Below the pieces are notes generated by a model that saw nothing but the letters and a program-made list of their open reading frames with translations, made no database searches and had not been told where the DNA came from. Below are positions 388 through 29,428 of a stretch of DNA of 33,998 nt, one piece after another. The stretch is from Moniliella sp. 'wahieum'. Its lineage: Eukaryota. The first letter of the stretch is position 1. Every line of letters begins with the position of its first letter. The position numbers were made by a program, and so were the translations under genes. The stretch is from assembly GCA_003971905.1 (NCBI GenBank), contig RSEE01000159.1:62001-95998 (forward strand), in the 5' to 3' direction.

Positions 388-432
388 GCGTCAGCGTTTA
401 TTGCGCCCACTCTCCCATTGGCCAAGTTGATC

Positions 433-2035: not shown

Positions 2036-2420
2036 ATTGTTTCTCCTCTCAAACCGTTCTCAGACTCTTCTGTTGCCGAGGCCTTAGTTTCACGAATTCG
2101 TCAGTCCGTTTAACATCAAGCCCCTTCAAGCTTCAAGCTTCATCCCTTGTTGCTTACCACAGGTGAGCATAGTATAACCAGTAGCATTCCTTACGCCCCT
2201 TACGTTGGCAATGGCCGCATGGCCACACATTGGCCTTGTTCTTATGAATATGCTACTGCCCTCTTCTGGCGGAAATGGGTGCAAAGATGGCTTCGCTTGG
2301 GGGACTATCCTCCATGTGCATAAAAATGTGTGCTAGGCAAGTGCTGTTCTCTCCACTGTAGCCCTTCCAAGTCTGGTAGAACTGGTGTACGGGGATGCAT
2401 GACGAGAACCAAAATATTGT

Positions 2421-3028
2421 TCAGTTCTTGCCCTCGCAGAGGGCAAGGAGGGCCTGGGTAAGCGGCTGTTGACGCACAAGCTTGGGATCGGGCATCTTGA
2501 GTGCTTGCAGCAGTGCGCTGGGCGATTGAACCTTGGGGAGGGGCTCAGTGTAGTGCCTGAGCAGATTGGCCTCGTAAGGGTGCGCATCACCGCGATAGAG
2601 CTTAAGCCGGGCAAGACGTTCGTACCGAAACGAATTTTTAGGCAGCATACCCGACACAGCCTGGCGAATGATCTGTCCAAGCCAAGTGTTAGTTGAGTTC
2701 CTCTACTCACAGGGGTGAAACGGACCCTCTCTGGATGATCCAGCCGCAATTGGTGGAAAGTGTGCACGCGAAGGGACCCTGGCCTGGTGGTGCTCTTGTA
2801 GTAGAGCTTGTTGAACTCCTTCTTCCCCGTCACAAGCACGTCTTCAATATTGGTGACAATGACAATGTCGCCGGCGCGGTCGCTGCCGGCGTCGTAGAAA
2901 GGCTTGTGCTTGCCCATCAGCACACGCGCCACAGCCTCGGCCAAGCGACCGAGGGTGCGGTCGCGCGCGGAGACGTGGTGCCAAATCCTCGTGTAGAGTA
3001 AGTCGCGTGCGCCGTTGACCTGCGACAT
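2421..3028 (-). CDS. MRPL23: Mitochondrial large-subunit ribosomal protein uL13m; 1 intron
   Basis: WHHVSARDRTLGRLAEAVARVLMGKHKPFYD...GDIVIVTN...TGKK...PGSL. Intron 2673-2725 (GTCCGT..CTAAC..CAG) joins to IIRQAVSGMLPKNSFRYERLARLKLY, the L13 signature. Confidence 0.93.
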
Positions 3029-3302
3029 GGCCGGGTGGTGGTCGTCTCGCCCTCCCCGGACTGCCTGCTGCCCATCTCGCCCAGCGGTAAACGTTAACCG
3101 GTAAACGTTATTCACTTGCGGCTTCGAGACGGGACGGGCCAAGCAACCCGTGCGGTTCCGCCTGTAATTTCATTTCCAGCGGTGCCAGTTCCGCCTGGCC
3201 CCGATTAGTAAAGCAGCGGCTGGGCTGCTGCCTCACCCAGCAGCGGCGCGCTTCCCCCTCCTCCATCGATCTGCCTGCGCCTGCCTGCGCCCCGCCTGGA
3301 CG
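3029..3302. promoter_or_regulatory. Short bidirectional promoter region between uL13m and NDUFA13 (two mitochondrial genes)
   Basis: Head-to-head ATGs 275 bp apart. Contains the chain TAA-ACGT-TAA-CCGG-TAA-ACGT-TA at 3088-3110. Confidence 0.7.
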
Positions 3303-3836
3303 ATGAGCAGCGGCTTCACCTACAAGCAGGACCTGCCCCCGGCTGCCGGCTATGCCCCCATCCGTACAAGCGCAACCTCCCACGCCGCGGCCCAGCTGGA
3401 TGGATGGCCTGTCGGCTGTGCTGCTCATGACCGTCGTGGCCGGCAAGTACAAGCTCGACACGCGGAAGGAGGAGCTGTGCGTCCCCTCCCCTTCGGACTT
3501 TATCTCTTGCTACGCCAAGGGTGTACTGACCCCCCGCCGGCTCTCAGCGAACTTAACCGGGAAGACCAATGGTCGCGTATTTTGCTCGTGCCTATGTTGC
3601 AGGCAGAGGCGGATCGTGATCTGCAGCGGCAGATTGAGGAAAACCGGCGTCGTGAGAGCAAAATTATGGCGGATGTGCCCGGGTGGGAGGTGGACAAGAA
3701 CGTGTACAACGACAAGAGCTACTTCTTGTCGTCGGCCGCCGCCGTACACCTATCCCACCTGTCGACTGAAGTGTTACTCTCTCCTGCCGGCAGGAATGTA
3801 CTGAAAAGATGGAACTTGCACTCGCCAGCGCTGTAG
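3303..3836 (+). CDS. NDUFA13: NADH:ubiquinone oxidoreductase subunit NDUFA13/GRIM-19 (B16.6); 3' end uncertain
   Basis: YKQDLPPAAGYAPIxYKRNLP N-terminus. Intron 3477-3547 (GTGCGT..TACTGAC..CAG). Then ELNREDQWSRILLVPMLQAEADRD...MADVPGWEV...VYN. Apparent indels at ~3362 and ~3405. Confidence 0.88.
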   Translation: MSSGFTYKQDLPPAAGYAPIRTSATSHAAAQLDGWPVGCAAHDRRGRQVQARHAEGGAVRPLPFGLYLLLRQGCTDPPPALSELNREDQWSRILLVPMLQAEADRDLQRQIEENRRRESKIMADVPGWEVDKNVYNDKSYFLSSAAAVHLSHLSTEVLLSPAGRNVLKRWNLHSPAL

Positions 3837-4292
3837 CGGGGATGGAACGACGGACAGCGGCGCTCTGGGTTCAAAGGGGCGCCGCAGTTCTTTATGCTGG
3901 GCCCAGCAGTCCATTATATAGGTAACCCGCCTCACTCCCCGGTAGCGACGCTGGCACATTGATCTGACCACGTGGGAGTAATGGCTTGGTATGTGACGTG
4001 ATGCCATGTGGAACGTGGAACACTGCGAATTGCTGGACGTGGCCGTGCCCCGAGGGAAGATGTGAGAGCAATGAAGTGAATGAAGACAAGGGGACCGACT
4101 ATACAAATGGAGTGTCCCCACGAGGCAACATGAGAGGTTCAATATAATATGTTGGGAATATTTTGCATTTCCTTACCTTCATTGGTCTTCATGACGCTGC
4201 AAGAACTAGTAAACATGGGCAGCATACGAAGGTGTAGCTTCTTGGTACGAGGCCGATTGCATTGTGTGATACCCGTCCTCAAACCTGGAGCT

Positions 4293-5533
4293 TTATTCGT
4301 CCTTCGCTTCGCCCTCCTTGCCCTCGCTCTCCTCGCCTTCCTTCGTCTCGCCCTCTTCTCCTTCGCTTTCTTCTTCGTTATGCTGCACCTCCTCGACCAC
4401 GACATAGAACTTGGAGTCGACTTGGGTGCCGGGGACCATCGTCACGTCCGAGTCGGCGGGGAGGGAAGGTCTTCGCCAACGTGGCGCCACCATGAGGTGC
4501 ACTGTCCTCTTCGATAATCTTCTTTCTTCTTCAAATCAGGCCGAACGACATCGGCATAGCGCTGGGCAGGTTCGTGTCGCGAGTTAAGATCCTTGACGGG
4601 TTGGTAGTAGGCCGTGCCAGCCAAGGTGGTAAACAAACCGGCACCCACCACGGTAGTCAACCAAAAGCGGTAGGTTGAGTACCAGCGTGGGGTCCAGCCC
4701 CACTGCGTCGCCTTGGCATCAATCCACCATGCTCCGACCCAGGAGAGCCACTGGCCAACGAGACCCAAGGAGAGGGGGGGCTAAGTGCCAGGGAGGCCCA
4801 ACCAGCGACAAAGGGGGCCACACCCATTGCGTACCGTGCATTGCCGTGGTGCCCTCCGAACCCGGCGAATTCGAGGCCCCAATGCATGGCGCCAACAAAG
4901 GAGAGCAGGACAGCACTGACCGTAATTTGGGCCCACTCAGCTTGCCCGGCCAAATGGAGGAAATGCTGAACCGCCTCTTCATTACCTGTTGACATCATAT
5001 TGTTAGTCATCCCACCTACGCCAGCGACCATACAGAAGACGAAGAAACGCACCAACAGCCAGATACGCCTGGCGAGTGAACCAAACGCTGCTCGCGGTCG
5101 TAGCCACAATAGGCACCGAGCCTGCCACGCCCCATCGTTTGGCTGCCAAGGGCACTGCATGAATCAACGCCTCGGTATCCTCAAGCCCGGTCTTGATGGC
5201 GTTTGTGATGGTCGTATCGTGCGGAACTCCACGGACAGGTTGCTTGTACATAGCCTCAAGCTCGCCATCTGACTCTGACGGCAGCTTCCCCCCGGATATA
5301 GTGGCCTGCGCCATCCCCAAGGTCGAAACCACGTCTTCCTTCACGTTCTGGGCCGCATGCTTCAAGTTCTTGGAGCCCGGGGCGCCGGCCCGCGTGTCCT
5401 CTGCCCAGAGGGAGGGAGAACTGTGCAAGGTCCGTTGAGCCATCAGAGGGATAGAAGCGGGGCCGACTTTAACGGGTGCATCGCCGGGCGCCACATGGCG
5501 GGGGGCAATCCGGGCAGCGGAAAAGGCAAGCAT
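4293..5533 (-). CDS. DUF3429-type membrane protein, probably mitochondrial, with an acidic C-terminal tail
   Basis: Presequence-like start MLAFSAARIAPR. WGVAGSVP, then AVLLSFVGAMHWGLEFAG...RYAMGV, then W..D..AT..GWTPRWYSTYRFWLT. Intron 4986-5052. Indels in the G-run at ~4775 and at ~4490. Confidence 0.75.
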
Positions 5534-6344
5534 GTTGGCGGAGAGCTCAGACTGTAATGTACGACGGCTTATTGCAAGATGGAGGATGGAGGGAGGAGGG
5601 AGAAGGGCGAGAGGAGCCGGGTGCGGCCAATTCGAACAGGTTATTATATAGTTGCTCGGAGAGAGATCTGTAGGACGTCTCTCTCTCCGACGGACCTTCC
5701 TTCGGGATCGAGCTGAGGGTTTGGCAGACGTTTGGGGGGGTGCGGCACGGGCCAGTAAAACAAACGGACTGGGGTATGACGCGGACGGCAGATGGTGGGT
5801 GGGCTGTTGGCCCGCCTGGAGCGACACGTCAACGAAGGGGCATAATGGTGACAGGCAGATGCGGGTAGCCTGTGGTCACGGACTGGACTTATTACATCAG
5901 AGTACTGCTCTTGGGCGTCTGCCTGCATGGCAACTAAGCACGGAAGAGTGCTGTCCAGTCTGAGCCAATGCACTAGTGATCAGATGAGCGATCACCTCGA
6001 AGATCGATGATATCTGCGACGCAGCACTTCGCCGCTACTATTTATTGGCCCGGCGGAGAAGTACCCGTGACATCAATCGAGCTGTTGACGCCAGCGTTGA
6101 CATCGTTGACGTCACACCCTGTGGACGGCGGAGTGGACAATGCGAGCTCCGAGTGTGCTGAACCTTAGTACTGAAATACTCAGTACTCAGTTGGCCTCAG
6201 TACTGAGACTCAGTACCGAGAGCGTGTGGTACGCGGTACGATGACCGTCGAAAAAAAGCGAGATGATACTAGTAAAGGTGGACCCCGATCTATATACTGC
6301 TTGATATAGGCAGCTGCGGCCATCACATGTCACACGAGGAGACC

Positions 6345-6385
6345 ACCGGGCCTACGGCCCGGTCAGCTGGGGCTTCGCCCCAGCT
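6345..6385. repeat. Two adjacent perfect GC-rich hairpins (8-bp and 9-bp stems, 3-nt loops)
   Basis: ACCGGGCC-TAC-GGCCCGGT (6345-6363) and AGCTGGGGC-TTC-GCCCCAGCT (6365-6385), separated by 1 nt. Confidence 0.9.
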
Positions 6386-6394
6386 TGGTGCTGC

Positions 6395-6495
6395 GTCGCC
6401 ACCGTAGCCACCGGTCCCCCGTCGCCACCTTAGCCACCGTTCCACCGGCCACCGTTCCACCTCCACGGCCACCGTTCCACCGGCCACCGTTCCAC
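6395..6495. repeat. CCACCG-based direct-repeat array
   Basis: GTCGCCACC(G/T)TAGCCACCG x2 (6395, 6421) and GCCACCGTTCCAC x4 (6433, 6448, 6468, 6483). Confidence 0.9.
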
Positions 6496-7204
6496 GCTGG
6501 AAAGACGAAATAATATCACCGATACGCGCTGGTGGGTGGCTGCGGACGTGGCACGGGGCATGCTGATGTAAAAGTGCAGGGCCGATCCTTTTTGCGTATG
6601 ACATGGAGATCTATGCAGTAGTGAACAGCTCGGTGGGGGAGACAGATCCACTGGGTCAAGGAAAATAGTGACTTTGGGGAAAAGGTGTGAGCAAGGAAGA
6701 GCCTGCCAGAGAGAGATTACAAAAGTATCAAGTGTGTGCCTTGACCTGTGGCAGATCCGCTTCCGAGCACGGGCCTCCCGCTTCCTTTTGCATTGTGCAT
6801 GAGACTGTGACGAGGGAGGACGCCAGAGGATACCGCTAATATATAACACCGCTATGCGCTGACAAGTCCACGATTCCAGACCTTTTCTCCTCCTCGACAC
6901 TCATGGCCCACATCCGCACCTGAGCCATCATATACACCGCTCAAACACGGAGCGAGGACGGAGGGCAGTGCAGCTAGCCTATACATGCAAGCTGCAGGAG
7001 CACGCGGGTGGATAACGACACATGGATAACTCGGTACAACGGGACACAAAAGGGAACAGTGAACCCGGTTGCGTGGTAAAACCGATCCCGCAGGACCACA
7101 GTGGTGGTCCAGACGGAATACATGGCAACAATAAAGAGAAACAAGGGACGAGCGGGGGAGGGAGGGGTGCGAAGATAACGAGATATGTAGAGCATATAGT
7201 GGGC

Positions 7205-10200
7205 TCAGTAACGAATGTTGACCACGTTCTGGTCCTCGGCCAAACGAGGCCGCAACTCCAGTGCGATCCGGGCCACGACCTCCTCCTGCCAGCGGGGGAG
7301 AGGTTCGCCCTGGTGCACACGTGGGGTGGTAGTGTTGGACCCAGAGGTCGAGCCAGTGGAGCCGGTGGCCGAATGGGTACGGGTGGGCGAGCTAGGGTGT
7401 TCAACTGCCAACACGGCAATGGGGATCAGCGCGGCCACCGTCAAGTCGCGCGGGATGAGGCCCGACAGCTCCATCAGTCTGTCGTCCCAGTGGAGCCAGC
7501 TGAGCCAGGGGGGGCGAGTGAGGTGTTCCTGGCTTCCCGGGTCATCGACCACGGGGAGATAAATCACTCGCTTCCCACTACGTCGCCCGGCCGAGGGAAC
7601 GCCCGGGGCGGAACTCTGCATTGGGATCGGCTCGCGCAACTTGACCGGAAGACGAAAGAGCGAGCCGGCGTAGCCAATTCCCCGTTGGATAGGCAGCTTA
7701 CTTGGACTGTCAGGCCGGATGGTCGTGGAGGCTACGGCCCGACCTAACGAGAGGGGCGAGACCTCGTTGCCCAAGGGCATGTCTTCTTTGGCATCGGCAA
7801 AGTCCGACGGGGAAGTCTGCAACCCCCCATGGTGAGAGACGACAACGTGCCGTGCAGGTGACGGGCCGAGTGTGACCCCGTCAGTGTCAGGGGAGGAGTA
7901 GGCGAGCCCATAACCTCCCTCCTGGGGCACGGTAGGGGTCAAGTCCTGCACAATCTCTTGGGAATAGACCGAACGTGAAAGATGACCTTGGTCCGGCCCA
8001 TCAAACACGATGGCCGACTCGACGGCACCAGGACCGTTGTGGTCCGTTTGGTAGCTCAGCACCGAGGTACGGCGATAATGCGCCGGCAGGGCCGCCAGGT
8101 CGCCCATCGAATCCCCCCCATCCTCAGCATCGGCAAACAGGGAAGATCGATCGGAAACGTGTTCCTCCGACCCACTCCCCACTCGGAACGCCGAGGCGGG
8201 CAGTTTCCCGGGCCCTGGTACTGCGCGACGGTTGCGTAGCCCCGAAGCGTCCGAACCCAAAGCGACACTCGAGGCGAGCGAAGACGAAGGACCGTGTCGC
8301 CGGTGCCCCCGCTCTGCGGCGGCGGCAGCAGCAGCAGCACCAGCCACAGCACCAGCGCCGGCACCCACAGCCACCTCACCAAACCGGCCGGCCGAAGCGG
8401 ACGAGGTGGTGCCTGAACTTGATTGAGCCAGTCCTTCGGGCCCGAACGAGTAGAACTGAACAGTCCGGTTTCCCAACTTGCTTTGGGGGTCATGTCGTTC
8501 TGTTCGGTATCGACCAGACCCAAGCCCACGCCAGGCTGAGAAGAGGGATCGACAGAGCGGCTCTGAGTGAGTGTCTTGGCACAGACAGGGGAACCATCCT
8601 GGGTTTCCTCCACGAGCTCGGCCGGCCGGGCCTGGGGAGTGGTACCTTTCAAGTGGGTAAAGAAGGCATGAGGTTGAGGCGCCGGCTCCGTGTTGCCGCT
8701 CAAACTGGATTGGGTTCCAAATACATCATCTTCCTCGGTCGGGGTGGTGCGAGAAACGTCATGATGTGCCCCCCCGCAGCTACGCCCGCCGCAGCGGCAG
8801 TCCCGGCAGCCCCAGCCAAGAGAACGTTGCGAGGGGTGCCAGTTGAGGGTTTAAAGGGAGTGGCTGGCGTGCGCGGCGTGCCAGCCGCAGCAGGGGTGGT
8901 GACAGCAGTGGGGTGAGACGAGTAGCTCTGAGAGTTGGAGGCATCCGAAGCGCGGTTGCTGGGGGATGATTTCTTACCCCAGGCGGGGGCGAAGGCGCCT
9001 GCACCTGCTCCTACAGCCGCTCCCCCGACAGCCCCCGTGGCAGCGTCCCCCGTTAACGTCGTTTCACCCCGGTCCATTATGTGGGAGTGGGTGGCGAGGG
9101 AGTGGCTGCTCTGACTGGCGAAGCCTGCTGCACACCGGCGTGACCGGCAGTGAGTGCGACGTGAGACCCTGAAGCGGGGATGGGGGTAGCCCCCAGTAAT
9201 ATCTTTCTCCTTCTGCTCCTTGTCTTGCCTCTTTCTTCCTCCGGCAGCAGCAGCACAAGAGCAGGGCCAATAGAGCCAGCAGCGTGGGATACCCAATCCG
9301 AGGCCGAGCCCCAGGCCAAGGCCAAGGTGGTTGGAGTGGTGGTGTCCAGCCGCCGTGGCGCCCTTGGAGGCAACGAGCAGCTTCATAGTAGCTGTGCTGT
9401 TGAGTTGTACCCGTTCACCATGCGCGACGCAGCAGCAACTGTTACTGTGCTGTTCCCCTCACCGTCCGAAGGAACAGAGCCGGAAAGTTGTGACCCATTG
9501 GAGTGTAGCCAGGTGGGACCACCCGAGAGCGCGAGTGCCAGTCCCCCCGCGCCGCGGCCGGGGTGAGGTATGGGGCAACATCATACTTAAAGTCTTGGCC
9601 TGGGGTGGCATGGGCATCCGGGAGAGACTGAGTGGCAAGGAGGGATGGGAAGAGCTGCATGGCCTGGGGGGCTAGCATCGTAGCGTTCATAGAAGGGATA
9701 GAGAAATTGACGGGCACATTCCAGGTCCTGGTCGAAGTGAGGTTTGTATCCACGGGAGGGGTGCCAGAGAAGGTACGGGTAGCCTCATCGAACTGCAACC
9801 AAGGGGCAGCAGAGGTATTGGCACTGGCTGTTACTGTTTGGGCAAGAGTACGGTTGAGATAGACTCGTTGACCGTCCAGGGTCAAATGTTGATGGGCAGT
9901 GTGTAGTTGAAGATAGATCCGGCGGTAGCGTTTGCCACATGCAGCGGCTCTGCCAGGGCAAGCACATGCTTCGCGACCACAATGTTAAAATTGCTGGAGG
10001 GACCTCCAAAACCAGGCTGGTTGGATGCAGTGACCGTGACATTAGCCGTGGTGGGTGTGTTTGGCGTGACGCCAGAAAAAGTGTGGTCAGAGGGATTGAA
10101 GTGGAGCCAATCGGGCAAAGGCTCGTGTTCGCCCACTTGCGGGGTCCAGTAGACGGGCGTGGCATTGTTAGCCTCGACAAATGAGTCGCCTTGGAATCCG

Positions 10201-10665
10201 AGAGAGAAGTTCTGTCCCATGGGAGCGAGATGGAACCGTCTGGCAAAACTTGTGACGAAGCCAGGGACGAAGCGATGCGGGGCAACTGTTGAGCCAGAGG
10301 CACATTGACGGTGGGCGCAGGCGCTTGTAGCACTTTGAGCTGGAACGTATCGTAGCCCGTGTGCAACCCATCGGAAGGTTCTCTGGCACGGCAGCGAGGG
10401 TGACGTTAGCGGAGGTTGGGTCAGAAGCTGATGGTGTGCCGAGAAAGTGAGAGTGTTGTTGTGTCAAAAGAGCACCACGAAGGCAATCCTGTCACCGAAA
10501 ATTCAACAGGGCCCCCGGCGTTGGCGACAAAGGTGTCCTGGTCTAGGACCCATTGGTATGGCTGACCCACATGGGCCAGCGGGGGGAGCTGAGCCTGGAG
10601 TGTAGTGACCTGGTGCACGGAGGCGTGAACGACGCCTGCGACAGCACGACGAGAGAAGCGAGCAT
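7205..10665 (-). CDS. Axl2-like type I membrane protein with dystroglycan-type cadherin-like (CADG) repeats; many apparent indels
   Basis: Signal peptide MLASLVVLVAGVVHA (needs a 1-bp fix). QLPPLAHVGQPYQWVL..DTF..LPSWCSFD..GTP, LPDWLHFNPSDHTFSGVTP and APWLQFDEATRTFSGTPP repeats. TM helix at ~9250-9325 (LGLGLGLGLGI..LLALLL) followed by CCCCRRKK. Long Ser/Gly/Ala-rich tail to the stop at 7205. Confidence 0.8.
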
Positions 10666-12630
10666 GGCAGGCGTGCGGGCCTGGGCAGAGCAACAGGCCT
10701 TGTGCGACGCGTCATGGCCTATCGACGCGACAAAGAAGGTCAGCGGCTGGCGCGATGCCGAGGGCGGTCATACGCACAATATGGTCAAGGAGGTGCACGG
10801 CGGGAGGAAAGGTGGGGTAAGGAGCGTGGGCACCTGTCACTTCCGACACAGCGGGGGGGGGGGGGGCGGAGATGGGGAGGCAGGTGGGCAGGGAGGGAGA
10901 CGGGGTGGCGCCGAGGCCAGAGAGGTGGTGGAGGCTGGGAAGAGATGAGCAGACGGCGGGAAACAGAATCACGGCATCCAGCCCTTTTCTCGTTGCAGTC
11001 AATAACTCGATACACGGAGTACTCAGGGTAATTCAGTACTCAGGGTCCGTGTCCCTTCTGGTGCCTGTGTGCCAGCCGAGGTGCGGTGCTGGGGCGGTAC
11101 CAGCAGTCTATGCGTGGAGGGCATGCGCAGGCGCGGGGGCAGTGTCGGACCACTTACAGTGCATGTGATTGGCATGCGAACGTCCTGACGGTGCAGAGGA
11201 AGAGTGGCCGGGTGGGGAAGCGCTCTGGAGACTGCCCCCCTGCGTGCACGCTGCCTGCCGGAGAAGGCAGGTGGAGCGCAAGACCAACACTGCGCACGGG
11301 CGGGGCACGCACACGCAGGGCCGCATAATGGGGGTGCCTGCCAGAAACGGCAGGGCACGCAGCAGGCAGTGCGCCCCAGTGGCTCAGCGCTCACGCGCTC
11401 ACATGTCCTCTCAGATCTCAGACCCCAGAGTCCAGACTGGGCCCCGGAGTGCAGATCTCTCGCTGGCCATTGGACGCCCCGTGCCTGCCCGCCAAGGGAA
11501 GCTCGAAGCAGAGGTGCGGGCCGGGACGGGGGCAGTGTAAAAAACTTCCATCGAATATCTACCAACCCCACATGCGTCAGTTGCATCAGTACCAGTGCAG
11601 TCCTCCGTCTGAGTACTCAGGACCAGTCGTGATTAACGTGGTGGCTCTATTCAGAGTATTCACTACGCAATGGAGAAGTAGGCCTAGCTAGGCCTTTTTT
11701 AGGGCCTTGGGGCGGGAGGCATTCGCTGCTAGTGACTTGCGACGGACACCCCTTCTTAGATCTTACATGTTACAAACCCACCATTCTCACACCCGTGCCA
11801 CCCGCGCATGGCCCAGACGCGCGGGGCGCCTACTAGTGACTCGCCTGTAAGAGATCCGTGGCATTTCGGTGAGGCACAGCAATCGTTTGTGGCAATCTGT
11901 ACTTCACATGCCTGTCATGTGATCACCGCCGCGCATTGTAGTAGTGACCTGCCGGTTGTGGAAGGCATGTCAGCGCCAGCCCGCCTTTTTGTTCGTTGCC
12001 TTAGATGGCTCTCGCCTTACTGGGAAACCACCTTTTAAGCGCACGAGCCGAAGCCCGACGGCACCGAACCTGTTTGTGGCGCAACCACGTATGCACAGCG
12101 CACCTCTTCTATCGTCATCCGCCGCACCCCCTTCACTATACTACCACAACAGTAATACCCCCTCTCTGCATCCGCCCTGCCGAGAATGTGCGGCCAGCTC
12201 GAAAGACATTAATAAACAATACCGAGATGAGAATGATACACGATGTTACGGGCTGTATTGCATCCGAGATGGTCTGATCCAAGCTAAGGCTCGCCTGATC
12301 TGCATATACCCACTGGAGCGCGCTCCGAAGTCCAACCATGTTTGATGATGATTGGTTAAATCACAGGTGCGGTGGTCCCAGGGGCTATATTTGCATCTGC
12401 CGCGTGACAAAAATTAGTCGCCCCCACCCAAGTCCAAGTCGGATGGCCTAAATAACGCCACCAAGTTTCCATTCTCTTTTCGTCGACTGTCGCCTCTTCG
12501 TCACCACTTACTTTTCCTTTCTCGGTTGCGCCAGCGGCAACCAACCCCTCTTTTGACGCGTCTTCCTTTCTACACCCCTATTGTATCCGTCTCCCCTTCT
12601 GATCTATAACCTGTACCCCTCTGGTTGGTG

Positions 12631-12997: not shown

Positions 12998-14542
12998 TAC
13001 TACGCAGCCTTTTGTCACACGTGCAGCCGCCTCTATCCTGCCTTTAATTGATCACGCCCAAAGGCCTCTCCTTTCCCCTAGCTCCGCTCCGATCCACCAC
13101 CTAGCCCAAACTCGAAACTCCCATGAGTCAACCTACCGGAGCCGCCTGACGGGGCCCGCCCCGAGACACACGGCCCTCTGTGCGCTCTTGGATAATCGAC
13201 TGTCATTAAAAATGTCATGATTTCTGTGTTCCCGCCGCTGATGTTTTCCTTTATGTTTTGCCAGTCTGCTTTCCTTTGCCACACTTCTCACAAGGAAAAC
13301 AAACGCAACAGAGGTAGAAAGAGGAACAAGGGAACAGGAGGACGGGTGCGGCACAGGCGCAATGGAGAAAAGATTAAGGTAAACGGACATATGGGGCGAC
13401 TATATTGTCGCACGCGGATAATATGTAGGTTGAACTGGGAGACCTTTTTTGATGTGGCAGTTGTCGAAGAGGACCTGTCGAGTGGGCTGCACATTTCAAT
13501 TAGGGTCATTGGTTGCCACTCCCGATTTCCAGCGGGGCCGCCCGCGGCGGGGCCGTGCGTACGCTGGGAGCTCGAAGCGCAGCAGTGCTATACGAAGCAG
13601 GCGTGTTTTGTGGTCGGACTGCGGGTCATCGATCATCAACCATCTCCCATCTGGATCACCTCGCAACACCTCACCTTACCGACCGCGATGGTTTGGCAGG
13701 CCTTCTTATGTTCGGCGCGGTGCGTGTCCGCTATACATACAGGAGACCGCATCTCCTGGGCAAAAAAGTATATTATACAAGCGAAGTGGCACTGATGGGC
13801 CCCAGAGGTGTGTGATAGGGGGACCCTACCGTCTCGCTTATATTTCGTGCATCGCGTACTCGGTTTTGTTAACCGGCTTGGCCCCTATTATACTAGTCTC
13901 TGCCATTTTACACGCTGCTTAAAAAGGTACCAGGTGCTATTAGGAGACAAGCGTGCGTCCGCAGCCGGCTCGGCTGATGGGAGAGCTCTTATAGTATAGG
14001 GCCCCGTCCAATCGATAAGGGGTTGAGCCGTACTTCACATGCTTCACAGTGGAGGCGCAGCGCCACACTTTTGTGATCCGTCATGCACGCCATGCGTCAA
14101 GCGTCCCCCCCGCAATCGTCCTGTAAGTATGCGTACGTCGGAGGAAGGCCGTACATCCTGCTCTGCAATGAGAGATGTAGGATCCTCCCCAACCTGAGTT
14201 TCGTTAGCCAGCGCACGTGCAGAGTCGCAGCAGCGATGGCGGAGCACAGGGTTCATGAATACTCTCTGTTGGCGTCTCCAGTGCTGCGCTGCATAGTATT
14301 CCCGGCACCTCCCCCACAAAAACGCAGTTTGTGGGTTGACTACGCCGTTGACTCCCGCAGCATGTTTCCAGCTTCAGCCTTTTTAAGCCCTTGTGCCCCA
14401 CCCTCTCCTTTCATCCACCCATACCACCAAATCTCTTTCTTCAGCGCCCCACCAGCACCGCCCCCGTTTCCTCTCTCCATATTCCTTCCCTTTGTAATCC
14501 CCACATCCTTACTTGACCTGTTACACAGCAAAGCAAAGCCCC

Positions 14543-19391: not shown

Positions 19392-22300
19392 TCATGTCGC
19401 CGTCGGGCTGCTAACCAACGAATGCGATAAGGACAAGCCCATGCCTCTGCGCTCGGCAACCGAAGGCGAGGGCGCCAGGTCCGCTTGGGGCGCGCTCGTG
19501 GGGACAGGTAAGCGCTGCGGATGCGGTTCCTCGCGTTCCTTGGGGGAAGGCTGGTGACGTTGCTTGGCCAAAGCGGTACCGCGGACAGACATGCGGGCGA
19601 TGGCTTTGGTCATTCCTCGGTGGTGGTGCTTCGGGCAAGGGAAGCGGGATCTTCTTGCTCCCCTCGGGTTGAGCCTGCTCGGGCTGCTCTAGGTCGGTTT
19701 GCTCGGTAGGCACCGAGGCGGGGACACCTCGGTGGCCAGCTGGGAACGCGCCGGGCGTAGCGGGTTGGACAGGGATAACCTCCGTTCTCGCTCGCCCGTC
19801 AGCGGCGGAGCCGGCACGGGCGGGAATCCGTACCCCCTCCTCTCGACCATCGGACTGACCGCAGGCGAGTTGGTCGACGCACGACGCTGCCCAAACGCAT
19901 ACTTGATCTGCCGTGCCTCTCCGTCTTCTTCTTCCCGACACGGCACACTCATCTCCGTCGCCAGTATGGGCTGGGCCAGAGGAACCCCCTGGATGCTCTG
20001 TCTCAGCCTCCGCATTCGATGGAGAGGGGACAACGGGGAAGGGGTACCCCTCCGACGAATGAGAGGGGGCAGGTGGTGCGGCGCATCGGGCTGCGCCGAC
20101 AGTGGGGCCGCCTGGGCAGGGCCGGGAGTAGGGTGGGTGGGCACCACAGCAGGTGGCGGTGCCATTGGCACCATCTGCATCCCCAGTGCGGCGTGGGCGG
20201 GGCAGGCCAATGCGGCGTAGCCGGGTCCATGGGCGTAGGAATGCCCATGTAGAACGGCATGTGGGCCGAGGGGGTGCCTGGGTGCATAGGAAAAGTGCAC
20301 GGGCGCCCCAGGGCTTGGTTGATGTACGGGTTAACGTCTGCGCGCCCGGTGTCAATGGAAGACCTGGCACAAGACGGGTGACCGAAGGGCTAAATGTGTT
20401 TGCCAGGGGAAAGGAGATGAGGGGCAAATGAGCATGAGGCGTTCCGGGATCGAGTCCATGGGCCACCCCACCCCAGGTGTGACCACACCCGGCGTCACAG
20501 GCACATTCACCCGCCCCAGCGGTTGGGCGTACCCCTGCACATACCGGAATGGTGCAGAGGGAAGATCGATCCGTCCTGGCCGTCCATTGGGGCGAGGTTG
20601 ACCTCCATTCGGCGGCGCAGCACGCGATGCGGCGTGTAGCGGCCGTCGGCGGCGCAGGCAAGGATGCTTCTCCCACGCCACGGGGTTGTTGAGACGGGGC
20701 TTCAGCTTGGGAGGGCCTCGACACGCCTGACGTTGCCGATGTATGTGAGAAGGATGACAAGCCTGATGCGGCCGACACGGTCGATAAGGAGCGATGATTG
20801 CGTGTGGGCGGGTCCGAGGGATGCATCACGCTGCGGCTGACACGACGGCTGGGGAAGCATGCGAGGAGCCTGTTGAGGAGGTGCCATGGGCACTCCCAGG
20901 CCGCATGTGTGGCGAAGCGGAGTCGGTGGATTGGTCCGAGGGCCAGGCGCGGAGCGGAGGCGCCGCTAACTGATGTCCATATTCGGAACGGCCCATATAA
21001 GATTGGTGTCCTCTAGCCCCTTGCGCTTGAGATGGGGGGGCTGTGGAGGGGACAGAGAGCTGCTGTTGATGCTGCTGTTGCTGGGAGCAGAGCGCTTCGC
21101 TGCATCGCTTGCTGGACGTACGGCGAGGGCTGCTGTGGGCGCATCAACACATACGGAGACGCAGTCAACGGTGCCCCTCCCGCCAGTGCCGTCCCACCAG
21201 TCATGCCAGAGGTCCCCGCACCGGCAATGGCAGACCGGGAATCCCCCCCGCCAAACTAAAGTTGGTCCCGACCAGACCCGGGAGGTCCAAGGCAGAAGCT
21301 GCTGCGCCGCGGTGGGGGCGCAACAGCACCTTGCGACATGCTTGCGCTGAACGCGCCGTGTACTGGGCGGGGGCGACGGGGATCGATCCTGGGCTGGGGC
21401 TGCATTAACCGCAAAGCGATCGAAATGGACCTTCAGCGTACGCCCACTAAATTCGTAGCTAAAGAGAAGGGTTAGCATGACATCACCAGCAAAGGAGATG
21501 GTGAGGATGAGGGGGGGGGAGGACATACCCATGGTACAAGCGAACAGCATGCTGAGCATCCTCGGGGGTAGCAAAGAGGACCGTACCAAAACCTTTGGAC
21601 CGGCCTTCGGACCGACGGCCACATCGGCACGCTGGACACGGCCCGCGGCACGAAACAAGTCCTTGAGGTCTTGCCATTGAGTGTTGAAAGGGATGTTGCC
21701 GACAAAGAGGGTACGGCCATAGTACGGCGTAGGCGCCGCGGCCGCCTGAGCAGCCGCCTGGGCTGGCAAAGGCAGCAGCATTGGACACGGCCATACTATT
21801 CATAGAAGCAAGATTCACGTTCACATCTCCTGACGGGAAGCCGAGCGACCGGTCCCACCGCTCTGTTCCCAAGGGGAAGCGCAAAATTGTGTCGGGAGCA
21901 GCAGGGGCCGGCAGCGGGCCCGGGTTGAGCAATTGGCCAGACCGGTCGATTTGTACGTCGAGAACACGGCCTTGCCAGCTGAAGCCATGGAACATCTCGA
22001 CAGCATGCAGTGCATCGGTCTCGGTCGCCAAAAGGACCGAGCCATAGCCCTTGGAACGATTGTCGGGTGTCAGGGCAACGTCGGCGCGGAGCACGGTGCC
22101 CGAGCGGCGGAAGAGATCCTTGAGGTCTTGCCAGCGAACACGGTACGGCAGGTTACGCACGTACAGCTGGGTACGTGGGTCGAAGCGGCTCAGCGGGCCA
22201 GCCTGGGCGGGGGAGCCCTGGGTGGCAGGGGGCCACGGGGAGGGATGGGGGCAGGGCTGCGGCTGCGGCTGCGGCTGTTGCTGGGAGACGGCGGACAAGT

Positions 22301-22586
22301 AGCGATGCGCAGGGCTTCCGGCGCTCAGACTGGGGCTGGCACTCAGGTTCAAGCTCAGGCCGGGGCTGGGGCTGGGATGGTAGGGGGCGGGAGCGGGCGG
22401 ACGGAGCGCATGGCGGCCAAGGCGGACGAGGGCTCGAGGCGCCAGAGCCGGCGGATCCGCTCGAGGCGGAGATGGCGCGGTCCATGAGCAGCGCTTGGCG
22501 GCGGCGGCCGCGGCTGCTGCGTCGTCCAGGCCGGCGCGGGTGCTGGGCACGGGGGAGCGTGCGTGGGCAGGAGCGTCGGGCAGCAT
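19392..22586 (-). CDS. RNA-binding protein with two Gbp2/Hrb1/MYEF2-like RRMs and long low-complexity Pro/Gln regions; boundaries approximate
   Basis: RRM1 QLYVRNLPYRVRWQDLKDLFR..RSKGYGSV..FHGFSWQGRVLDV. RRM2 TLFVGNIPFNTQWQDLKDLFR..RSKGFGTV..YHGYEFSGRTLKVHFD across intron 21459-21528. Multiple indels. Confidence 0.85.
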
Positions 22587-23673
22587 GGAGGAAGAGAAGA
22601 CGAGGGGGACACGGGGCAGCTGAGCGGAGGCGGGGGGCTACAGGCCAGACCAGAGGAGACGGGGCAGAGACAATAGCAAAATCGCATACATCCCTCGTCC
22701 GGGGGGATGGTCGGGGCGGCGGCGGTGGAGGCGGAGGACGGGTCTTCAAGGCGCCCGAGGGCTTCCCAGCATGGCGGTTGGGCGGCGCGTGTGTTCCGCA
22801 CCTCCGGCTGACGTCATTCCGCCGGGCGGGGGTGGTGGCGCCATGCGAGGCGAGGCCACGTCGCCGTTCCCCGACCCGACGGATGACTGTGGCGGAGGCA
22901 TGGCTGATCGCTACTCGCTGTGTGGCCGCAGCGCCCGGGCGGCTGCTCGGAACACCCACACAAGGCTTCTCTGCCCAGTCCATCATCCATCGCACGCTGC
23001 GGGCAGCCCCGGGCGCCAAGGCAGCTACTAGCCGCCAGCAGTCACCTAGTCCCCCACACACTCATCCTCACGTGAGTAGTCAGCTACAGCGCGCTAGCCC
23101 AGGCTAGCCCCCTAGTCAGCCTAGTCAGCGCTGGGCTCAGCGCACTCTCAGTGATGAGATTCATCATGCATCATCCATCCATTATCCGCCTGACTGGGGC
23201 TGGGCGCTGAGGGGCTGAGCGCTCGCTCAGTTGAGCCTCAGCCGTGAGGGCCTCGGCGGCTCAGCTAGCGAGGAGCTTCCTCCGCCCCTCCTCCTGCCTA
23301 GCCAGTCGCTCCGTCCATGCAACCTCGCTGTCAACGTGTCAACGCTGAGGTCAACGTTGAGTAGTGTTAGTGTGTTGTCAACTGCTTCTTTACCCCACGC
23401 GCTGCAGTCCAAGCGCCAAGATCAGTAACCTAGTAACTCCACTCTAGTGACTTTTAGGAGTGATCGGATGATCGATGACGGTTATCCCACACGACACGTG
23501 TCATCACATGCCACATCACATCCGCCGCTTGACAGCTCTGCGCCATCGGAAAATGGTTCGGCGCATGGGAATTCGCTAAGTGTGCATTACATAAGCAGAC
23601 ACGCACTTGATTCCGTCGGCCACTGGCTGCGATTTTCGTCGCCACCGGCTCTGGACCCCTCCATCAGCCCAGG

Positions 23674-24608
23674 ATGTACAACGGCATTGGCCTCCGCACC
23701 GCCCGGGGCTCTGCTACCAATGGCCACATCCAATCCAACCTAGCCGCCCCACGTCCCCCGCGCATTCACCACTCCGGTGCGCGCGAAGTGAGCGCGCGCT
23801 GCCCGAGCGCGCACCAGATCCCGCACTGCTGGCCCACGAAGAGCGGCGACAAATCGAAGTGCGGTGCATGGAGTTACGCATGCAACTTGAGGAGGAAGAC
23901 GTGCCCGACGATCAGATCGAACAGCGCGTTGCTTCGCTGCGCGAAGAGCTTCAATCGGCCCCAAGGGAGTACGATCCGAGCGAAGCCAAGGGCCTGCGAT
24001 CCTCGGACGTGCACCGTCTCGCCGCTGCCAAGGACAAGGAGATGCACGCTTTGCGTCCGCCTTGCGTATGCGCGATGACTACGTCCTGGCGAGGCCTTTG
24101 AGGACGACTACCGGGACCGACAGCGCGCTCGTCGCCAGGAGGAAAAGGAGACGCGTCATCGCGAATGGGAGGAACGTCAACGGGCCCGTCAAGCGGCCCA
24201 GAAGCTTCGGGACGAAGAGTACGAAGCACGCATGGCTCAGCGCGCCGAGCAGGCGAACCGTCGCTCGGAACAGAGACTGGCACGAGAACGCCCAGAGGAG
24301 GCCATGTCCCACCTTGATGCCGAGCTGGACAAGATGGCGGCCGAACGGCGCGTGCGTCCCTCCCTCAGTCTCGATCGCCATCTCGTTCGCGCTCCGTCTC
24401 GCGCTCTGCCTCGCGCTCTGCTTCACCCAGAGGACGGCGTGACTCCCATTCGGCTTCGCCTCCAAGGAGGTCTGGTTACCGCTCCCACTCTCGGTCAGAG
24501 TCGTACGACTCCCGGTCGCCATCGCCGCGGCGCTCCTACTCTCCCGTCGGTCCCCCTCTTATTCCCGCTCGCCGTCCTCGGCGGGACGGACGGTCGCGCC
24601 GGTATTGA
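23674..24608 (+). CDS. CWC21: Pre-mRNA splicing factor Cwc21 (SRm300 N-terminal homolog) with an RS-rich tail
   Basis: Signature N-terminus MYNGIGLRTARGSATNGHIQSNL. cwf21 domain LLAHEERRQIEVRCMELRMQLEEE...IEQRVASLREEL. C-terminal R/S-rich repeats. Several indels. Confidence 0.9.
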
Positions 24609-25148
24609 TTCTGGCTACGCATGTTATACGTGTTTTTCATCCCCTTGTGGATAGTGCCAAAGCAAGATCAATAGAAGGAGGAGAAAGAACGTGGAGGGGA
24701 ACAGGGAGAAGGTCAGATGTATTATTGCTTTGTGGAACCACAGTTGGTGTCTTCGTTCGGTTCGAGGTGGGGAGGGCGAAGGCTTGAATGCTGTTTAAGG
24801 GGGAAGAGTAGGTTAAAATGCAAGGGATGCGTACAAAGAACAAAACGAAGCAAGGCGGATTGGGCTGTATAACGGGACGATTGGATTGGAGCCGGCCTAC
24901 GTTTTAATGTGAACACGGACGGGGGATAGGTATGAGATCTGAGATAACGTTACCCAGTAACCGGTAACCGGATAACCGCACTATTACATTGAGGTTTGCG
25001 TGTAGCTTTGATCTTGTCAATTGCATCGACATCGATATCGCACAGTCATCATATCTGCGGTTCACTATATAGAGTAGTTTCCCGTAGGTTTCTTTGGATC
25101 CCGCTCGACTCGCGCTGGCGCTGGCTCAGGTTGGTGTGGTGTGGACAA

Positions 25149-25175
25149 CATGACATGCATGACATGCATGACATG
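25149..25175. repeat. (CATGACATG)3 tandem repeat
   Basis: Three perfect 9-bp units. Confidence 0.9.
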
Positions 25176-26013
25176 CACATGATGAACTACGTGAGGGCGT
25201 ATAGAAGGTGGTACTGTTGTGGGGGAAGCGTTTTCCATGTCATAGATTACCAATGCCGTTAATGCCGGGATGGGTGTCGGTGATCAATGATCGAATGATT
25301 GAAGCGATGCATGACACTAGTACTACTTGACGTACGTACGGGTGGCGGTCCAGCGCACAGTGACGGTTCAACGTTCAACGTCAGTTCAGACTCAAGTTCT
25401 GCGCTGAGCCGCTCTGCGCTCAGCATGCCTCTCCGCTTGGTAGAACTAGTAACTCGATTGTTTTCCTGTCTTGCACGCTGGACACCAAACAAACAAACTC
25501 ATATGTACCGCCGGTGGCCACCGTTCAGTTTCCAAGCTTGCATGGGGCGGGGCTGCACGGAACACAAGGGCATAGAATTCATGAAGTGCCCAGACGACAC
25601 TATTCTTCTTCGGCCGCCTTTCAGGTGTGATGCACATAATATGCGAGCACTGAGCTCTGCTGAGGGCTATACTCAGCGCCGAACGCATCGTTTGCATAGT
25701 TATAGATCATCGATCAGTAGTTCAGGCGTTTTCATAGCAGAGGGCCTGAGGTCTGATATCCCCTCTCAGCGCTGAGGCTCAGCGTTCAGCCTGTAAAACA
25801 CCTGAGAGAGGACGCCCGAAGAGGGTGTGGATCTGTGAGAACGTAGTGCCACAGCCGTCGGATACCACCGCCATATGACATGGACTACAGGATTGTCCGG
25901 GGAATGTATGGGGGAGGCTGAAGCAGTGCTTAGGCTTAGGCTGCTTGGCGCTTAACATGGTGGGTCTTTTGGTAGGAAATCTATACGACCTGGGGAGATT
26001 CGGAACGAGGTCA

Positions 26014-26136
26014 GAGATCTGAGATCTGAGAGTCTATTGTTGTGGACGCCACATAATTAAATGGCCCCTGGAGAGTTAAGCTTTAAGGTTCAAAACGTTC
26101 AACGAACAACGATTGCTCCTTCAGATCTCAGATCTC
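26014..26136. repeat. 16-bp perfect inverted repeat pair bracketing a ~91-bp spacer
   Basis: GAGATCTGAGATCTGA (26014-26029) is the reverse complement of TCAGATCTCAGATCTC (26121-26136). No obvious TSD. Confidence 0.85.
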
Positions 26137-26508
26137 AGAGCTTGAACGTCACGCATTGCACCCCTTACTCCCCCCGAGTATATACGCCTCTGCGTCTCTT
26201 GGACGCTTGGCGCTTTTGCTTTGATCCGGCCTTTCATTGGAATAGCGCGTGTAGCTACCAGTCGGTCGTTGGGACGTACCTGTGTGTACATACACCCCGC
26301 CCATCATCAAACTAGATTAATCAGAGCACGGCGGATCCCATCAGCGCATCAGCTGTCTGGATATGAGCCGTACTAAGAACTCAGTCACCCGTTAAGGCCT
26401 AAGGCCTAACGGCCTAACCCAACAGGCATACCCTACAGACCTCCGCCTCCTGATCAACACTCTCGCTTCGTCTCCCTCTCACTCATCTACCATCCACCAC
26501 CGCCCTCC

Positions 26509-29130
26509 ATGTCCTCTGTGCCCCATTGGGCCATGTCCGCCTCTTCCAGTGGCACGGGCGGCATGGACATCGCCATTCCCTCCTCGGCTCCAAGAGCAGC
26601 TTTACCCTTGCCTTATTTTCGCTCTAATTATCCGTCTCAGGGGTCGCACCAAGGACTGCACTCCCCCAGCCTAACCGTCAGGGGGAGGGGATCCGTCAGG
26701 AAAGTGCCGCCCTCTTCTCCTCCCCTCATCGACCCTCTGGTGACCTCACCTCTCTTCAACCCACCCCTCACTCCGTCGCCATCGCGGCTCTCGCGGGAGA
26801 TCTATCCACTGTCCGTTCCGCTCTTGCTTCAGGCATCTCCCCCAACCATTCTCATGGAGGAATCACTCTTTTGCATGCCGCCTCGGCCGCAGGGCACCAA
26901 GACGTGGTCTCCCTCCTTTTGGCTCATGGCGCCAACCCAACTCTGCCGCGGTGGAATCCGACACGTTCCGCTTCCTCCCCTCTTCCGTCATCTGGTGTGC
27001 CCGCGGTGCCCCAGGGTGCTACTGCCCTCCATTTAGCGGTGGCCAACTCACACCCCAAGGTGGTCAAATTGCTGCTCGAAGCAGGTGCCCGGCCAGATGC
27101 CCTTGACGCCAATGGTACCACCCACTCGAGTTGGCAAGAGAGGCTGCACGCGCCCTCCTCAACCAAAGCCACGAGCAATCTCTCCCACAAGGGAGGCACT
27201 CCCGTGCAAGAAGTCCATGATTGACTGTTCCGACGGCTTTGGTTCATCCTACTCTGTGATAGGCACCGATAATCCAACCCCTTCCTCCTCTTCCCTTGCT
27301 TCTTGCCGGAAAAAACTGAGCCCTGCGTCCTTGGAATGGAGCTATCCTCAGTCTTTTTCCGCCAAGGGAAGCGCCAACACGTATATTCTCACTCCCCATT
27401 CTCCTCCCCCAACCCCTCACCACCACCAAAGTCACACAATCCTGCCCTACTTCGATCCATGCTGCTCACATACCCTCGAGCCCAGTCACCCCACAATGGT
27501 CCATTCTCCCCCCTCATCGCCTTCTCTTCAAAATCCAGCGTTCCCTGGTTCTTTCCTTCGTTCTTCCGCTTTCCCCCGCCCAGTTCCCAAGACACATCAT
27601 CATGAACTGGACTCCTCCGGCGTGTCCACTCTCACCCATCGCTCTGGCCCTTCATCTCCTCCTCTCCCAACAGCAGTGTAGGCTGGGGGCCGCGCTACCC
27701 CGCTCTCGGTCAGGGGGGGCGATTCAACCGCGCCGACCGTCGCTACCGAGCATCACTGAACGGAAGGTCTCCATCTTGAAGGAGCCCCATTCGGCCTACA
27801 ACGTCGCCACCACATCCTGGCCTCGTGACGGGACAGACAGGCGGACAGTACAGTATCAGTACTAAGGACGAGTGGGAAGAGTTGGCGTCGCACTCGCCTC
27901 CCTCTCGCTCTTCCCCACCCCCAATCGTGGGTGGAGCATGGTACACCCCGTTGGCATGCCTGCCGGGCGATCGCCCTCTTCCGTTCCCAGGAAGCAGCAC
28001 ACTACTCTCGGAAGAGACGGGGTTCTCGACGAACCTCGCCAACGGTTTTGTCCCCTCCCCCATCGCCAGGCTCACCGGGTTTAGGATGCTTACTTCCCAT
28101 ACCTCTGAATCCTCTTTCGGCCTCGGCCCAAGCAGCAGCCATCCTCCAGCACAGCCCCACAGGGGAGACGCTAACGCACCAACTCGCGTCCTTGGGAAGC
28201 GTTGCAGCGGGAACGCAATTCTGGCCCAAAGGGGTTTTCTCCCCAAGACGGGGGAAGGCGATGGGCACCGCCTCTCGCCCCGGCCATGCGCTCGTCCTGG
28301 CGCGCTGCGCCACTCACCCTCTTCTTTTGCCACCCTCGTTCCGCCGGCATCAGGTCTCGCTGCTCGTCGGGGGCCATGGATCAGGCCCTGCCCCATTGCA
28401 CCCGCCCCCCTCGCTTTCTTCGGGGAGTTCCAAATGGAAAGGCAACCAATCCCCCTGGAAACCGGTTGGTCCTCCGGCACCCGATTCCACCGAGGAGACT
28501 GCCATTTTTGTCATCTCCGATGCCACCTCCCCGAATGCTGTGCCTGATGAACCCACGTCACTTGGCGCCGGGACGTGCCGAGCTTGCGTCCGCTGCCTAA
28601 TGTGATACCGATCGGGTCCGACGTCTCGTTCCTCGCCCGTATCGTCTTCCTACCCTTCCTGCATGCCAGAATTGGAGACGAGCGGCCCCAATCCCTGCCG
28701 GCCAGTCGTGCTACCCGTGACCATGCAGCCACTTCGTTCTGCGCCCGCTCAGTTCGCCGCACCATTTGGTAGGGGCGGCGCCAGCCGGTTCCGCCAGATG
28801 GAAGAAGGCGAGGGATCGATCTGGTCGCGTTCCTGGAGCGTGGGGGGCGAAGAAACGTCCTGTCTTCCGGGCCCGGCTCAGCCTACCCAACGCTTTCGTA
28901 CTGGCTCGATGGACGCTCTGCGTCCGCTGGCCAAGGCCTCCTTTCCCCTCCTCCGACGGTCCGAGTCAGCCACGCGGCCTTGGGAGGACGTGTGGACGTC
29001 CGAGGCGGATGAAGGTAGGTGCGCCACAAGTCCTGCTAAACCCTTCCGTTCCGCCTCGGCCTACCCCGTCATTCGACGGGTCAAGTCCGAGGCGCTCGGA
29101 GTGGTGCACAAGATGTTTGACAAGAAGTAG
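26509..29130 (+). CDS. Ankyrin-repeat protein with a long disordered Ser/Pro-rich C-terminus; many indels
   Basis: LLHAASAAGHQDVVSLLLAHGANP and GATALHLAVANSHPKVVKLLLEAGARPDALDANG ankyrin repeats. S/P-rich frames continue to MFDKK* at 29130. Confidence 0.75.
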
Positions 29131-29428
29131 CCCCCTTGCTCTCCCCTCCTGAACGTTGAATGTTGAAGCCTCTATTGTCACCTGTATGGCACCCCGTCGC
29201 CTTTCCTTCAGTGCCTATTGCTGTCCCCTCTCTTTGTCCCACCTACCTACAACACGATTCTTTACGCTCTTTCGCGCCTGCATATATCCCTGCCTCCCGT
29301 ACTGATCCCCCCCCCCGTGCACTAGTTACCCTCGTTACATGTTTCCCCACCCTCAATTTCATGGAAAAAAGGAAGACTACTCGGTCCCTACACTCTTCTT
29401 CCCCGCATCTCCTTCGGGCCAGGAAGGG

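Follow-up and report, generated by a model that had tools for sequence, protein, structure and literature searches.

Flank-copied palindromes between TNA triplets in a Moniliella contig: probable excision footprints of a cut-and-paste DNA element

Why should the spacers between genes contain numerous short palindromes whose symmetry is conserved while their sequence is not? This question was raised by a stretch of contig RSEE01000159.1 from Moniliella sp. 'wahieum' (positions 62,001 to 95,998), analyzed here over its full length of 33,998 bp (59% G+C) and referred to as the window. An earlier note had listed 31 copies of the motif TNA-[4-bp palindrome]-TNA in it, and had offered three explanations: (a) a dimeric or structure-reading binding protein, (b) excision footprints of transposons with a 3-bp TNA target duplication, and (c) fold-back or template-switch mutagenesis. 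As described below, the palindromic core was found to be copied from the bases next to it, and the resulting insertions of 7 to 9 bases are, judging by their sequence, probably excision footprints of a cut-and-paste DNA element.

The motif and the source of its core

An exhaustive scan of the window yielded 34 10-mers of the TNA-[4-bp palindrome]-TNA type, in which the T and A positions were invariant and 12 different palindromic cores were represented. All 31 copies listed earlier, 29 of them called intergenic and two coding, were recovered in place, and three were added: TAA-TATA-TAA at 6837, TCA-TCGA-TCA at 13626, and TCA-GTAC-TAA at 27856. After dinucleotide-preserving shuffling of the whole window (n = 200), only 3.7 ± 1.8 motifs were obtained, with a maximum of 10, and shuffling within 300-bp blocks (n = 300) gave 3.83 ± 1.97 motifs, again with a maximum of 10. 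These counts agree with the rough chance rate given in the earlier note.

The core was palindromic at 34 of the 73 TNA-N4-TNA sites (47%), where 6% would be expected. In the 15 remaining XNY-N4-XNY flank classes, the corresponding values ranged from 1/52 to 14/131, i.e., about 2–11%. The enrichment of the 10-mer is confirmed as real, and it held in the comparison of palindromic with non-palindromic cores against shuffled controls that had been suggested along with the first list. The two triplets were identical in 26 of the 34 copies, as had also been remarked for most of those seen earlier. Identical TNA pairs at a distance of 7 numbered 36 in the window, compared to 18.1 ± 4.2 (maximum 32) in 200 shuffles. 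A lesser excess of identical TNA pairs was noted at a distance of 12 (31 compared to 18.7 ± 4.6); these pairs share no common rule.

The origin of the core became evident when each copy was written with its neighboring bases as pq-TNA-core-TNA-rs, where rc denotes the reverse complement. Among the 26 copies whose two triplets are identical, 21 had a core equal to rc(pq)+pq or to rs+rc(rs). Shuffling within 300-bp blocks (n = 300) produced 0.16 ± 0.38 copies obeying this rule, with a maximum of 2. Rule-obeying 14-mers were found 21 times at the four TNA triplets and 12 times at the 60 non-TNA triplets taken together; chance alone would give about 6 of the latter, and several represent TNA events read in another register.

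Since the core is predicted by two neighboring bases, it is not set by the ends of an element or by a binding protein, and with the local flank as its template, there is no need to postulate ten element families. Palindromic bases templated by the flank were looked for as a mark of excision footprints; besides the 21 copies named above, all nine of the longer joints described in the next section show them.

Two further repeated sequences were noted. An imperfect G+C-rich array of GCCACCGT-like units, with periods of 8, 15, 20, and 26, lies beside a scar cluster at 6394–6495, and is also the source of a few non-TNA rule matches (CCA/ACC). The word GCTGAG/CTCAGC forms clusters at 23136–23349 (6 copies) and 25403–25783 (7 copies), some of which are parts of GC-TCA-GC-type scars. 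Over the window, 34 copies of this word were counted compared to 26.9 ± 4.8 expected, and it was rejected as a separately enriched word.

Joint series, duplicated heptamer, and location of the scars

For joints of variable length, the stretch between two identical TNA triplets was tested for being composed of two parts, namely the initial a bases of rs+s'r' and, after them, the final b bases of q'p'+pq. Among pairs with a 4-nt core, 21 of 36 satisfied this test, as did 5 of 18 with a 5-nt core and 4 of 23 with a 6-nt core, whereas about 0.7, 0.07, and 0.02 pairs, respectively, would be expected by chance. None of the 32 pairs with cores of 7–8 nt fitted. In total, 30 events were assigned to 23 loci, six of which carry two or three chained events (Table 1). 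The event spectrum comprised 21 insertions of +7, five of +8, and four of +9, with trims of 0–2 nt on one side; a range of joints with small trims is a second mark of excision footprints.

Every unambiguous joint contained one complete 4-nt palindrome (a = 4 or b = 4), while the other side supplied no mirrored bases and 0, 1, or 2 of its original ones. Single events at non-palindromic targets showed one mirrored flank, in 15 unambiguous cases.

The length of the target was indicated by the longest joints. A whole heptamer is doubled around two mirrored bases at 23116 (AGTCAGC-CT-AGTCAGC) and at 14035 (CTTCACA-TG-CTTCACA). Both flanks were retained at a distance of 9 in 6 of 23 TNA pairs, compared to 27 of 946 non-TNA pairs; among these six TNA pairs, the two middle bases matched the predicted mirror in four, with 2191 and 4072 deviating. 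In all 30 events, at least 5 nt of each target copy were retained, and the joints are thus flanked by two copies of a target duplication, as excision footprints are. The duplicated target is accordingly read from these copies as a 7-bp word, NN-TNA-NN.

The target word itself is simply NN-TNA-NN. The middle base of the TNA was C or G at 18 of the 23 loci and A or T at five, which is close to how often these triplets occur in the window (829 compared to 357). The four flanking positions showed no clear base preference, and complementary bases were present at p and s in 9 of 23 loci and at q and r in 7 of 23. A plain 7-bp tandem duplication on its own explained none of the 36 pairs, and the source is therefore not ordinary slippage or staggered-cut fill-in. 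On the same count, a microsatellite or minisatellite made by slippage, which consists of plain head-to-tail copies, was rejected.

The scars are distributed very unevenly. Of the 34 10-mers, 20 are located in the 13% of the window that contains no open reading frame (ORF) of at least 120 codons, and this ORF-poor fraction holds 18 of the 23 loci (binomial P = 2e-12). No locus (0 of 23) was found inside the Pfam-supported ORFs, which cover 8571 bases. The term intergenic is used here on the basis of ORF length and Pfam matches only; a self-trained codon model was dropped for gene calls because it drifted to CT-rich low-complexity frames. The spacer at 24652–26409, between the cwf21 and ankyrin genes, carries 14 events, which account for 104 of its 1758 bases (about 6%), and the local event density reaches 8 per kb.

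One-mismatch copies away from the perfect ones were present in 13 scan windows forming 11 clusters, compared to 4.7 ± 2.2 expected. The ratio of perfect to decayed copies, about 3:1, suggests as a rough estimate that most events are young.

As a control, 57 eukaryotic metagenome loci (376,829 bp) were collected by a metagenome scan with the RRM protein encoded in the window. They encode relatives of this protein whose best-matching segments reach no more than 74% identity, and since none of them represents an orthologous neighborhood, they were used as a negative control only. Palindromic cores were found at 68 of their 1168 TNA-N4-TNA sites (5.8%), and the flank rule was obeyed at a single site; the signature is therefore specific to this lineage and not shared by eukaryotic spacers in general. 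No look-alike stretch of the window was found in the other genomes compared. Within the window there were no paralogous segments; 21 families of short direct repeats and nine inverted pairs were detected, none of them informative.

Table 1. Positions of the scar loci, of motif copies that depart from the flank rule, and of genes in the window.
Feature	Position	Strand	Remark
Two chained +7, CT-TCA-AGCT-TCA-AGCT-TCA-TC	2124..2144		between 3' ends of kinase and uL13 genes
+7, AC-TCA-GTAC-TCA-GT	6178..6191		palindromic target heptamer; both overhangs would yield the same core
+7, CA-TCA-CATG-TCA-CA	6321..6334		core is right flank CA plus its reverse complement
Chained +7 and +8, GC-TCA-GCGC-TCA-CGCGC-TCA-CA	11382..11403		
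+7, TC-TCA-GATC-TCA-GA	11409..11422		
Two chained +7, TC-TTA-GATC-TTA-CATG-TTA-CA	11754..11774		differing cores, each templated by its own outer flank
+7, GG-TCA-TCGA-TCA-TC	13624..13637		absent from the earlier list
+9, heptamer CTTCACA doubled, TG between	14033..14048		TG is the reverse complement of CA
+9, heptamer AGTCAGC doubled, CT between	23114..23129		CT is the reverse complement of AG; clearest evidence of 7-bp duplication
+7, CA-TCA-TGCA-TCA-TC	23162..23175		
+8, TG-TCA-ACGTG-TCA-AC	23329..23343		
+8, AG-TAA-C-CTAG-TAA-CT	23424..23438		left copy minus 1 nt, two mirrored bases, right copy intact
+7, GA-TGA-TCGA-TGA-CG	23467..23480		
+7, TA-TGA-GATC-TGA-GA	24931..24944		
+7, AG-TAA-CCGG-TAA-CC	24956..24969		
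Two chained +9, CA-TGA-CATGCA-TGA-CATGCA-TGA-CA	25149..25173		6-nt core fits overhangs CATG and TGCA over shared TG
+7, GT-TCA-ACGT-TCA-AC	25366..25379		
+7, GA-TCA-TCGA-TCA-GT	25705..25718		
+7, TC-TGA-GATC-TGA-GA	26018..26031		
+7, AG-TTA-AGCT-TTA-AG	26074..26087		
Two chained +7, CT-TCA-GATC-TCA-GATC-TCA-GA	26119..26139		
+8, CA-TCA-GCGCA-TCA-GC	26339..26353		
Three chained (+7, +7, +8), GT-TAA-GGCC-TAA-GGCC-TAA-CGGCC-TAA-CC	26391..26419		about 100 bp upstream of the ankyrin-repeat gene ATG
TAA-ACGT-TAA-CCGG-TAA, motif matches outside the flank rule	3088..3104		uL13/GRIM-19 spacer
AGTACT-word cluster with 10-bp perfect palindrome TCAGTACTGA (6197) and 13-bp repeat	6165..6221		
Protein kinase, three frames	about 300-2032	+	Pfam
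Ribosomal uL13	2336-3000	-	Pfam
GRIM-19	3168-3833	+	Pfam
DUF3429	4445-5163	-	Pfam
He_PIG	9445-10463	-	Pfam
Alpha/beta hydrolase	15395-16231	+	Pfam
RRM protein	20969-22637	-	Pfam
cwf21	23595-24098	+	Pfam
Ankyrin repeats	26628-27221	+	Pfam
Sin3	33048 onward	+	Pfam

Excision of a mobile element weighed against other origins

The course of events that we infer begins with an element that would insert at T-N-A and duplicate 7 bp (pq-TNA-rs) through staggered strand transfer and gap repair. On leaving, its transposase would close each flank into a hairpin precisely where the duplicated heptamer ends. A host nuclease would then open each hairpin 2 nt off the tip, leaving self-complementary overhangs of 4 nt, which would read rs+s'r' at the left end and q'p'+pq at the right. 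End joining would usually retain one overhang whole, with the other removed to the duplex, and the product would be pq-TNA-[4-bp palindrome]-TNA-rs with a net gain of 7 bp; retention of one or two further bases of the other end would result in +8 or +9. As the scar recreates TNA sites, repeated events (or later slippage) could produce short 7-bp arrays. Frameshifting insertions in coding DNA would be purged by selection, leaving scars between genes only.

The palindromes are even and start exactly at the end of the heptamer, as would be expected if the nick is made precisely at the border of the element. Such a nick is the geometry of RAG and Transib. An even palindrome that begins directly where the retained flank ends is also a feature of P nucleotides at V(D)J coding joints and of excision by RAG1-like Transib. 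Fungi, to our knowledge, have no DNA-PKcs.

Passages of PMC5499845 describe how hAT, Transib, MULE, and RAG form flank hairpins, which are opened by host enzymes and sealed into footprints by end joining. According to part of PMC2175297, hairpins are opened 1–4 nt from the tip, leaving 2–8-nt 3' overhangs, and Artemis:DNA-PKcs opens coding-end hairpins mainly at +2. The dominant unit observed here, two mirrored bases or a 4-nt self-complementary overhang, resembles this +2 product of coding joints. Unlike V(D)J joints, the scars retain one whole overhang with the other removed, vary little, and contain no untemplated additions. The target also differs, being 7 bp long and TNA-centered here, whereas duplications of 2–5 bp are given for the CACTA/Transib clade in a section of PMC12730594; no RAG/Transib-like gene was seen in the window.

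Likenesses to the hAT group are found as well. As reported in portions of PMC5873905, Ac/Ds and other hAT elements in plants, S. cerevisiae, and Candida albicans leave two copies of the target duplication, with short deletions and with palindromic insertions explained by flank hairpins, and in fungi such insertions and small deletions are typical of Ac/Ds excision sites. In contrast to the present cores, the Ac/Ds palindrome is described there as centered on the complement of the base bordering the element. None of the 36 pairs is of this type, and a canonical hAT element, with its 8-bp duplication and complement-centered palindrome, was rejected for the 7-bp target.

Two Basidiomycota families with 7-bp target duplications, hAT7 of rusts and Kyakuja (KDZ) of mushrooms, are named in the part of PMC12730594 consulted; the likeness is by length alone, and no such element or transposase was found in the window. 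For the T1 transposon, the passages of PMC9942834 that describe it state no target duplication.

PIF/Harbinger shares a T-N-A-like target word and had been the model for option (b), which is borne out in kind, as excision footprints, but not in its details. The core is taken from the local flank in the 21 copies that follow the rule, and not from 2 bp of each terminal inverted repeat; the duplicated target is 7 bp long instead of 3, as whole 7-mers are doubled at 14035 and 23116; and the middle base, being C or G at most loci (TCA/TGA), does not follow the W of TWA. PIF/Harbinger was rejected on these three counts.

Several observations weigh against excision of a mobile element. The cycle of insertion and excision is reconstructed from its presumed scars, and the window contained neither a candidate element with inverted ends and a 7-bp TNA-centered duplication nor, among its 134 ORFs of at least 110 codons, any member of a transposase family. 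The 7-bp duplication rests mainly on the nine longer joints. The 14 events in the 1758-bp spacer call for a highly active element or for accumulation over a long time, and the six chained loci among the 23 need hot spots, reuse of recreated TNA sites, or later slippage. Five of the 26 identical-triplet copies violate the flank rule (3088, 3095, 6837, 11033, and 29150). Unlike triplets occur in 8 of the 34 10-mers, where about 2.7 are expected, and four of these eight are perfect 10-bp palindromes (6197, 11610, 23351, and 25766), which would need mirrored tracts of at least 5 nt or another origin.

Some of these exceptions have a local context. The copy at 6837, with its TATA core, is probably due to chance, and that at 11033 belongs to a 16-bp repeat. 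The AGTACT cluster (Table 1) may represent either a mirrored tract of greater length or an independent repeat.

Two repeats outside the scar rule were also noted. Between the divergently oriented genes for uL13 and GRIM-19, 1.8 copies of the 14-bp repeat GGTAAACGTTAACC are present at 3088–3112. Two A-NNNN-T palindromes interleave to form this repeat, which the simple scar rule cannot generate. At 6086–6112, GTTGAC occurs three times in steps of 12 and 9 bp (GTTGACGCCAGCGTTGACATCGTTGACG); it may be a real repeated binding word.

Among the alternatives, a cut and repair without any transposon survives best, although it too is unlikely. Here a host nuclease, such as a domesticated transposase, would cut TNA in open chromatin, and the repair would leave the scars. 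In its favor, no element was found in the window, and the events are very dense and clustered in gene-flanking spacers. However, a 7-bp direct duplication with hairpin-type mirrored inner ends is the product of insertion followed by excision. A staggered cut with fill-in predicts the plain 7-bp duplications that account for none of the pairs, while a hairpin-forming cut alone would, by argument, yield no duplication.

About equally doubtful is the proposal that the scars were written by an unrecognized transposase, belonging either to the host after domestication or to a still very active element of undescribed kind. It would combine flank-hairpin chemistry of the RAG/Transib type with a 7-bp TNA-centered cut and a preference for gene-flanking open DNA, and would continuously make new promoter repeats and palindromes.

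Replication error as the only source, whether by slippage of 7-bp units, by fold-back or template switch, or by polymerase snap-back at breaks, is improbable. The motif was present in 7 of 10 period-7 arrays detected by Tandem Repeats Finder, chained loci could grow through slippage, and the inverted 2 nt resemble a strand switch. Slippage, however, copies any unit, yet plain duplications are absent among the 36 pairs, one flank is mirrored in the 15 unambiguous events at non-palindromic targets, and non-TNA triplets remain at chance level. There is also no known basis for a switch of exactly 2 nt, always 2 nt from the T-N-A and without microhomology. Option (c), fold-back or template switching, captures the inverted 2 nt while leaving the strict T-N-A centering and the 7-bp direct duplication unexplained.

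Selection for cis-regulatory words, i.e., a dimeric or structure-reading protein that recognizes two T-N-A triplets 7 bp apart around a symmetric spacer, appears very improbable. Many copies do lie in spacers near gene starts (e.g., 3088, 23116–23469, and 26391–26419), and the T and A positions do not vary. Against this, there are 12 different cores, and a core predicted by its neighbors reflects a rule of copying and not of recognition. The +8 and +9 variants obey the copying rule yet break the 7-bp spacing, and the locus at 2124–2144 is situated between two 3' gene ends. A dimeric binding protein, as in option (a), leaves both the neighbor-copied core and the +7, +8, +9 series unexplained. 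A dyad transcription-factor site, for which a conserved sequence and fixed spacing are characteristic, was likewise rejected, given the 12 flank-set cores and the spacing of 7, 8, or 9.

A sequencing or assembly artefact has next to nothing in its favor, since the events avoid Pfam-supported ORFs and concentrate in ORF-poor DNA, unlike an error process, decayed one-mismatch copies exist, and the copying rule matches no error mode known to us.

Gene setting and meaning of the scars

The window is a gene-dense eukaryotic stretch with split genes, as determined by Pfam matches on open frames. Its eukaryotic nature is evident from the gene content, namely introns, GRIM-19, cwf21, and Sin3. Within the frame that precedes the kinase domain, a perfect hexamer array, (GCCATC)x6.7, was noted at 348–387; it reads as a dipeptide repeat.

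Footprints and P nucleotides are already well known, and genome-wide footprints have been cataloged in rice, as stated in parts of PMC4423477. That catalog resembles the present case in treating footprints as a genome-scale record of DNA-transposon activity, and differs, as far as those parts describe it, in being based on genome comparison and known families, in contrast to a single genome read with one grammar. In the main texts of the open-access papers and bioRxiv preprints searched, neither a single-genome footprint grammar of this kind, nor a TNA-centered 7-bp target, nor such scars in smut-like fungi were described.

If the insertions are indeed excision footprints, a single genome sequence would constitute a dense and readable record of transposon traffic, with 30 events in 34 kb. 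Behind them would stand a highly active element whose 7-bp target, NN-TNA-NN, is unusual. They would also report on the opening and joining of hairpins in a fungus in vivo, with one dominant product and opening at +2 without DNA-PKcs. Written as a regular expression, the rule could serve to map this activity, and to date it, in any assembly of the lineage.

For the genes themselves, the scars would provide a concrete source of 7-bp tandem repeats and short palindromes in promoters. Should the doubtful proposal of an unrecognized transposase prove true, the organism would possess a built-in source of regulatory variation.

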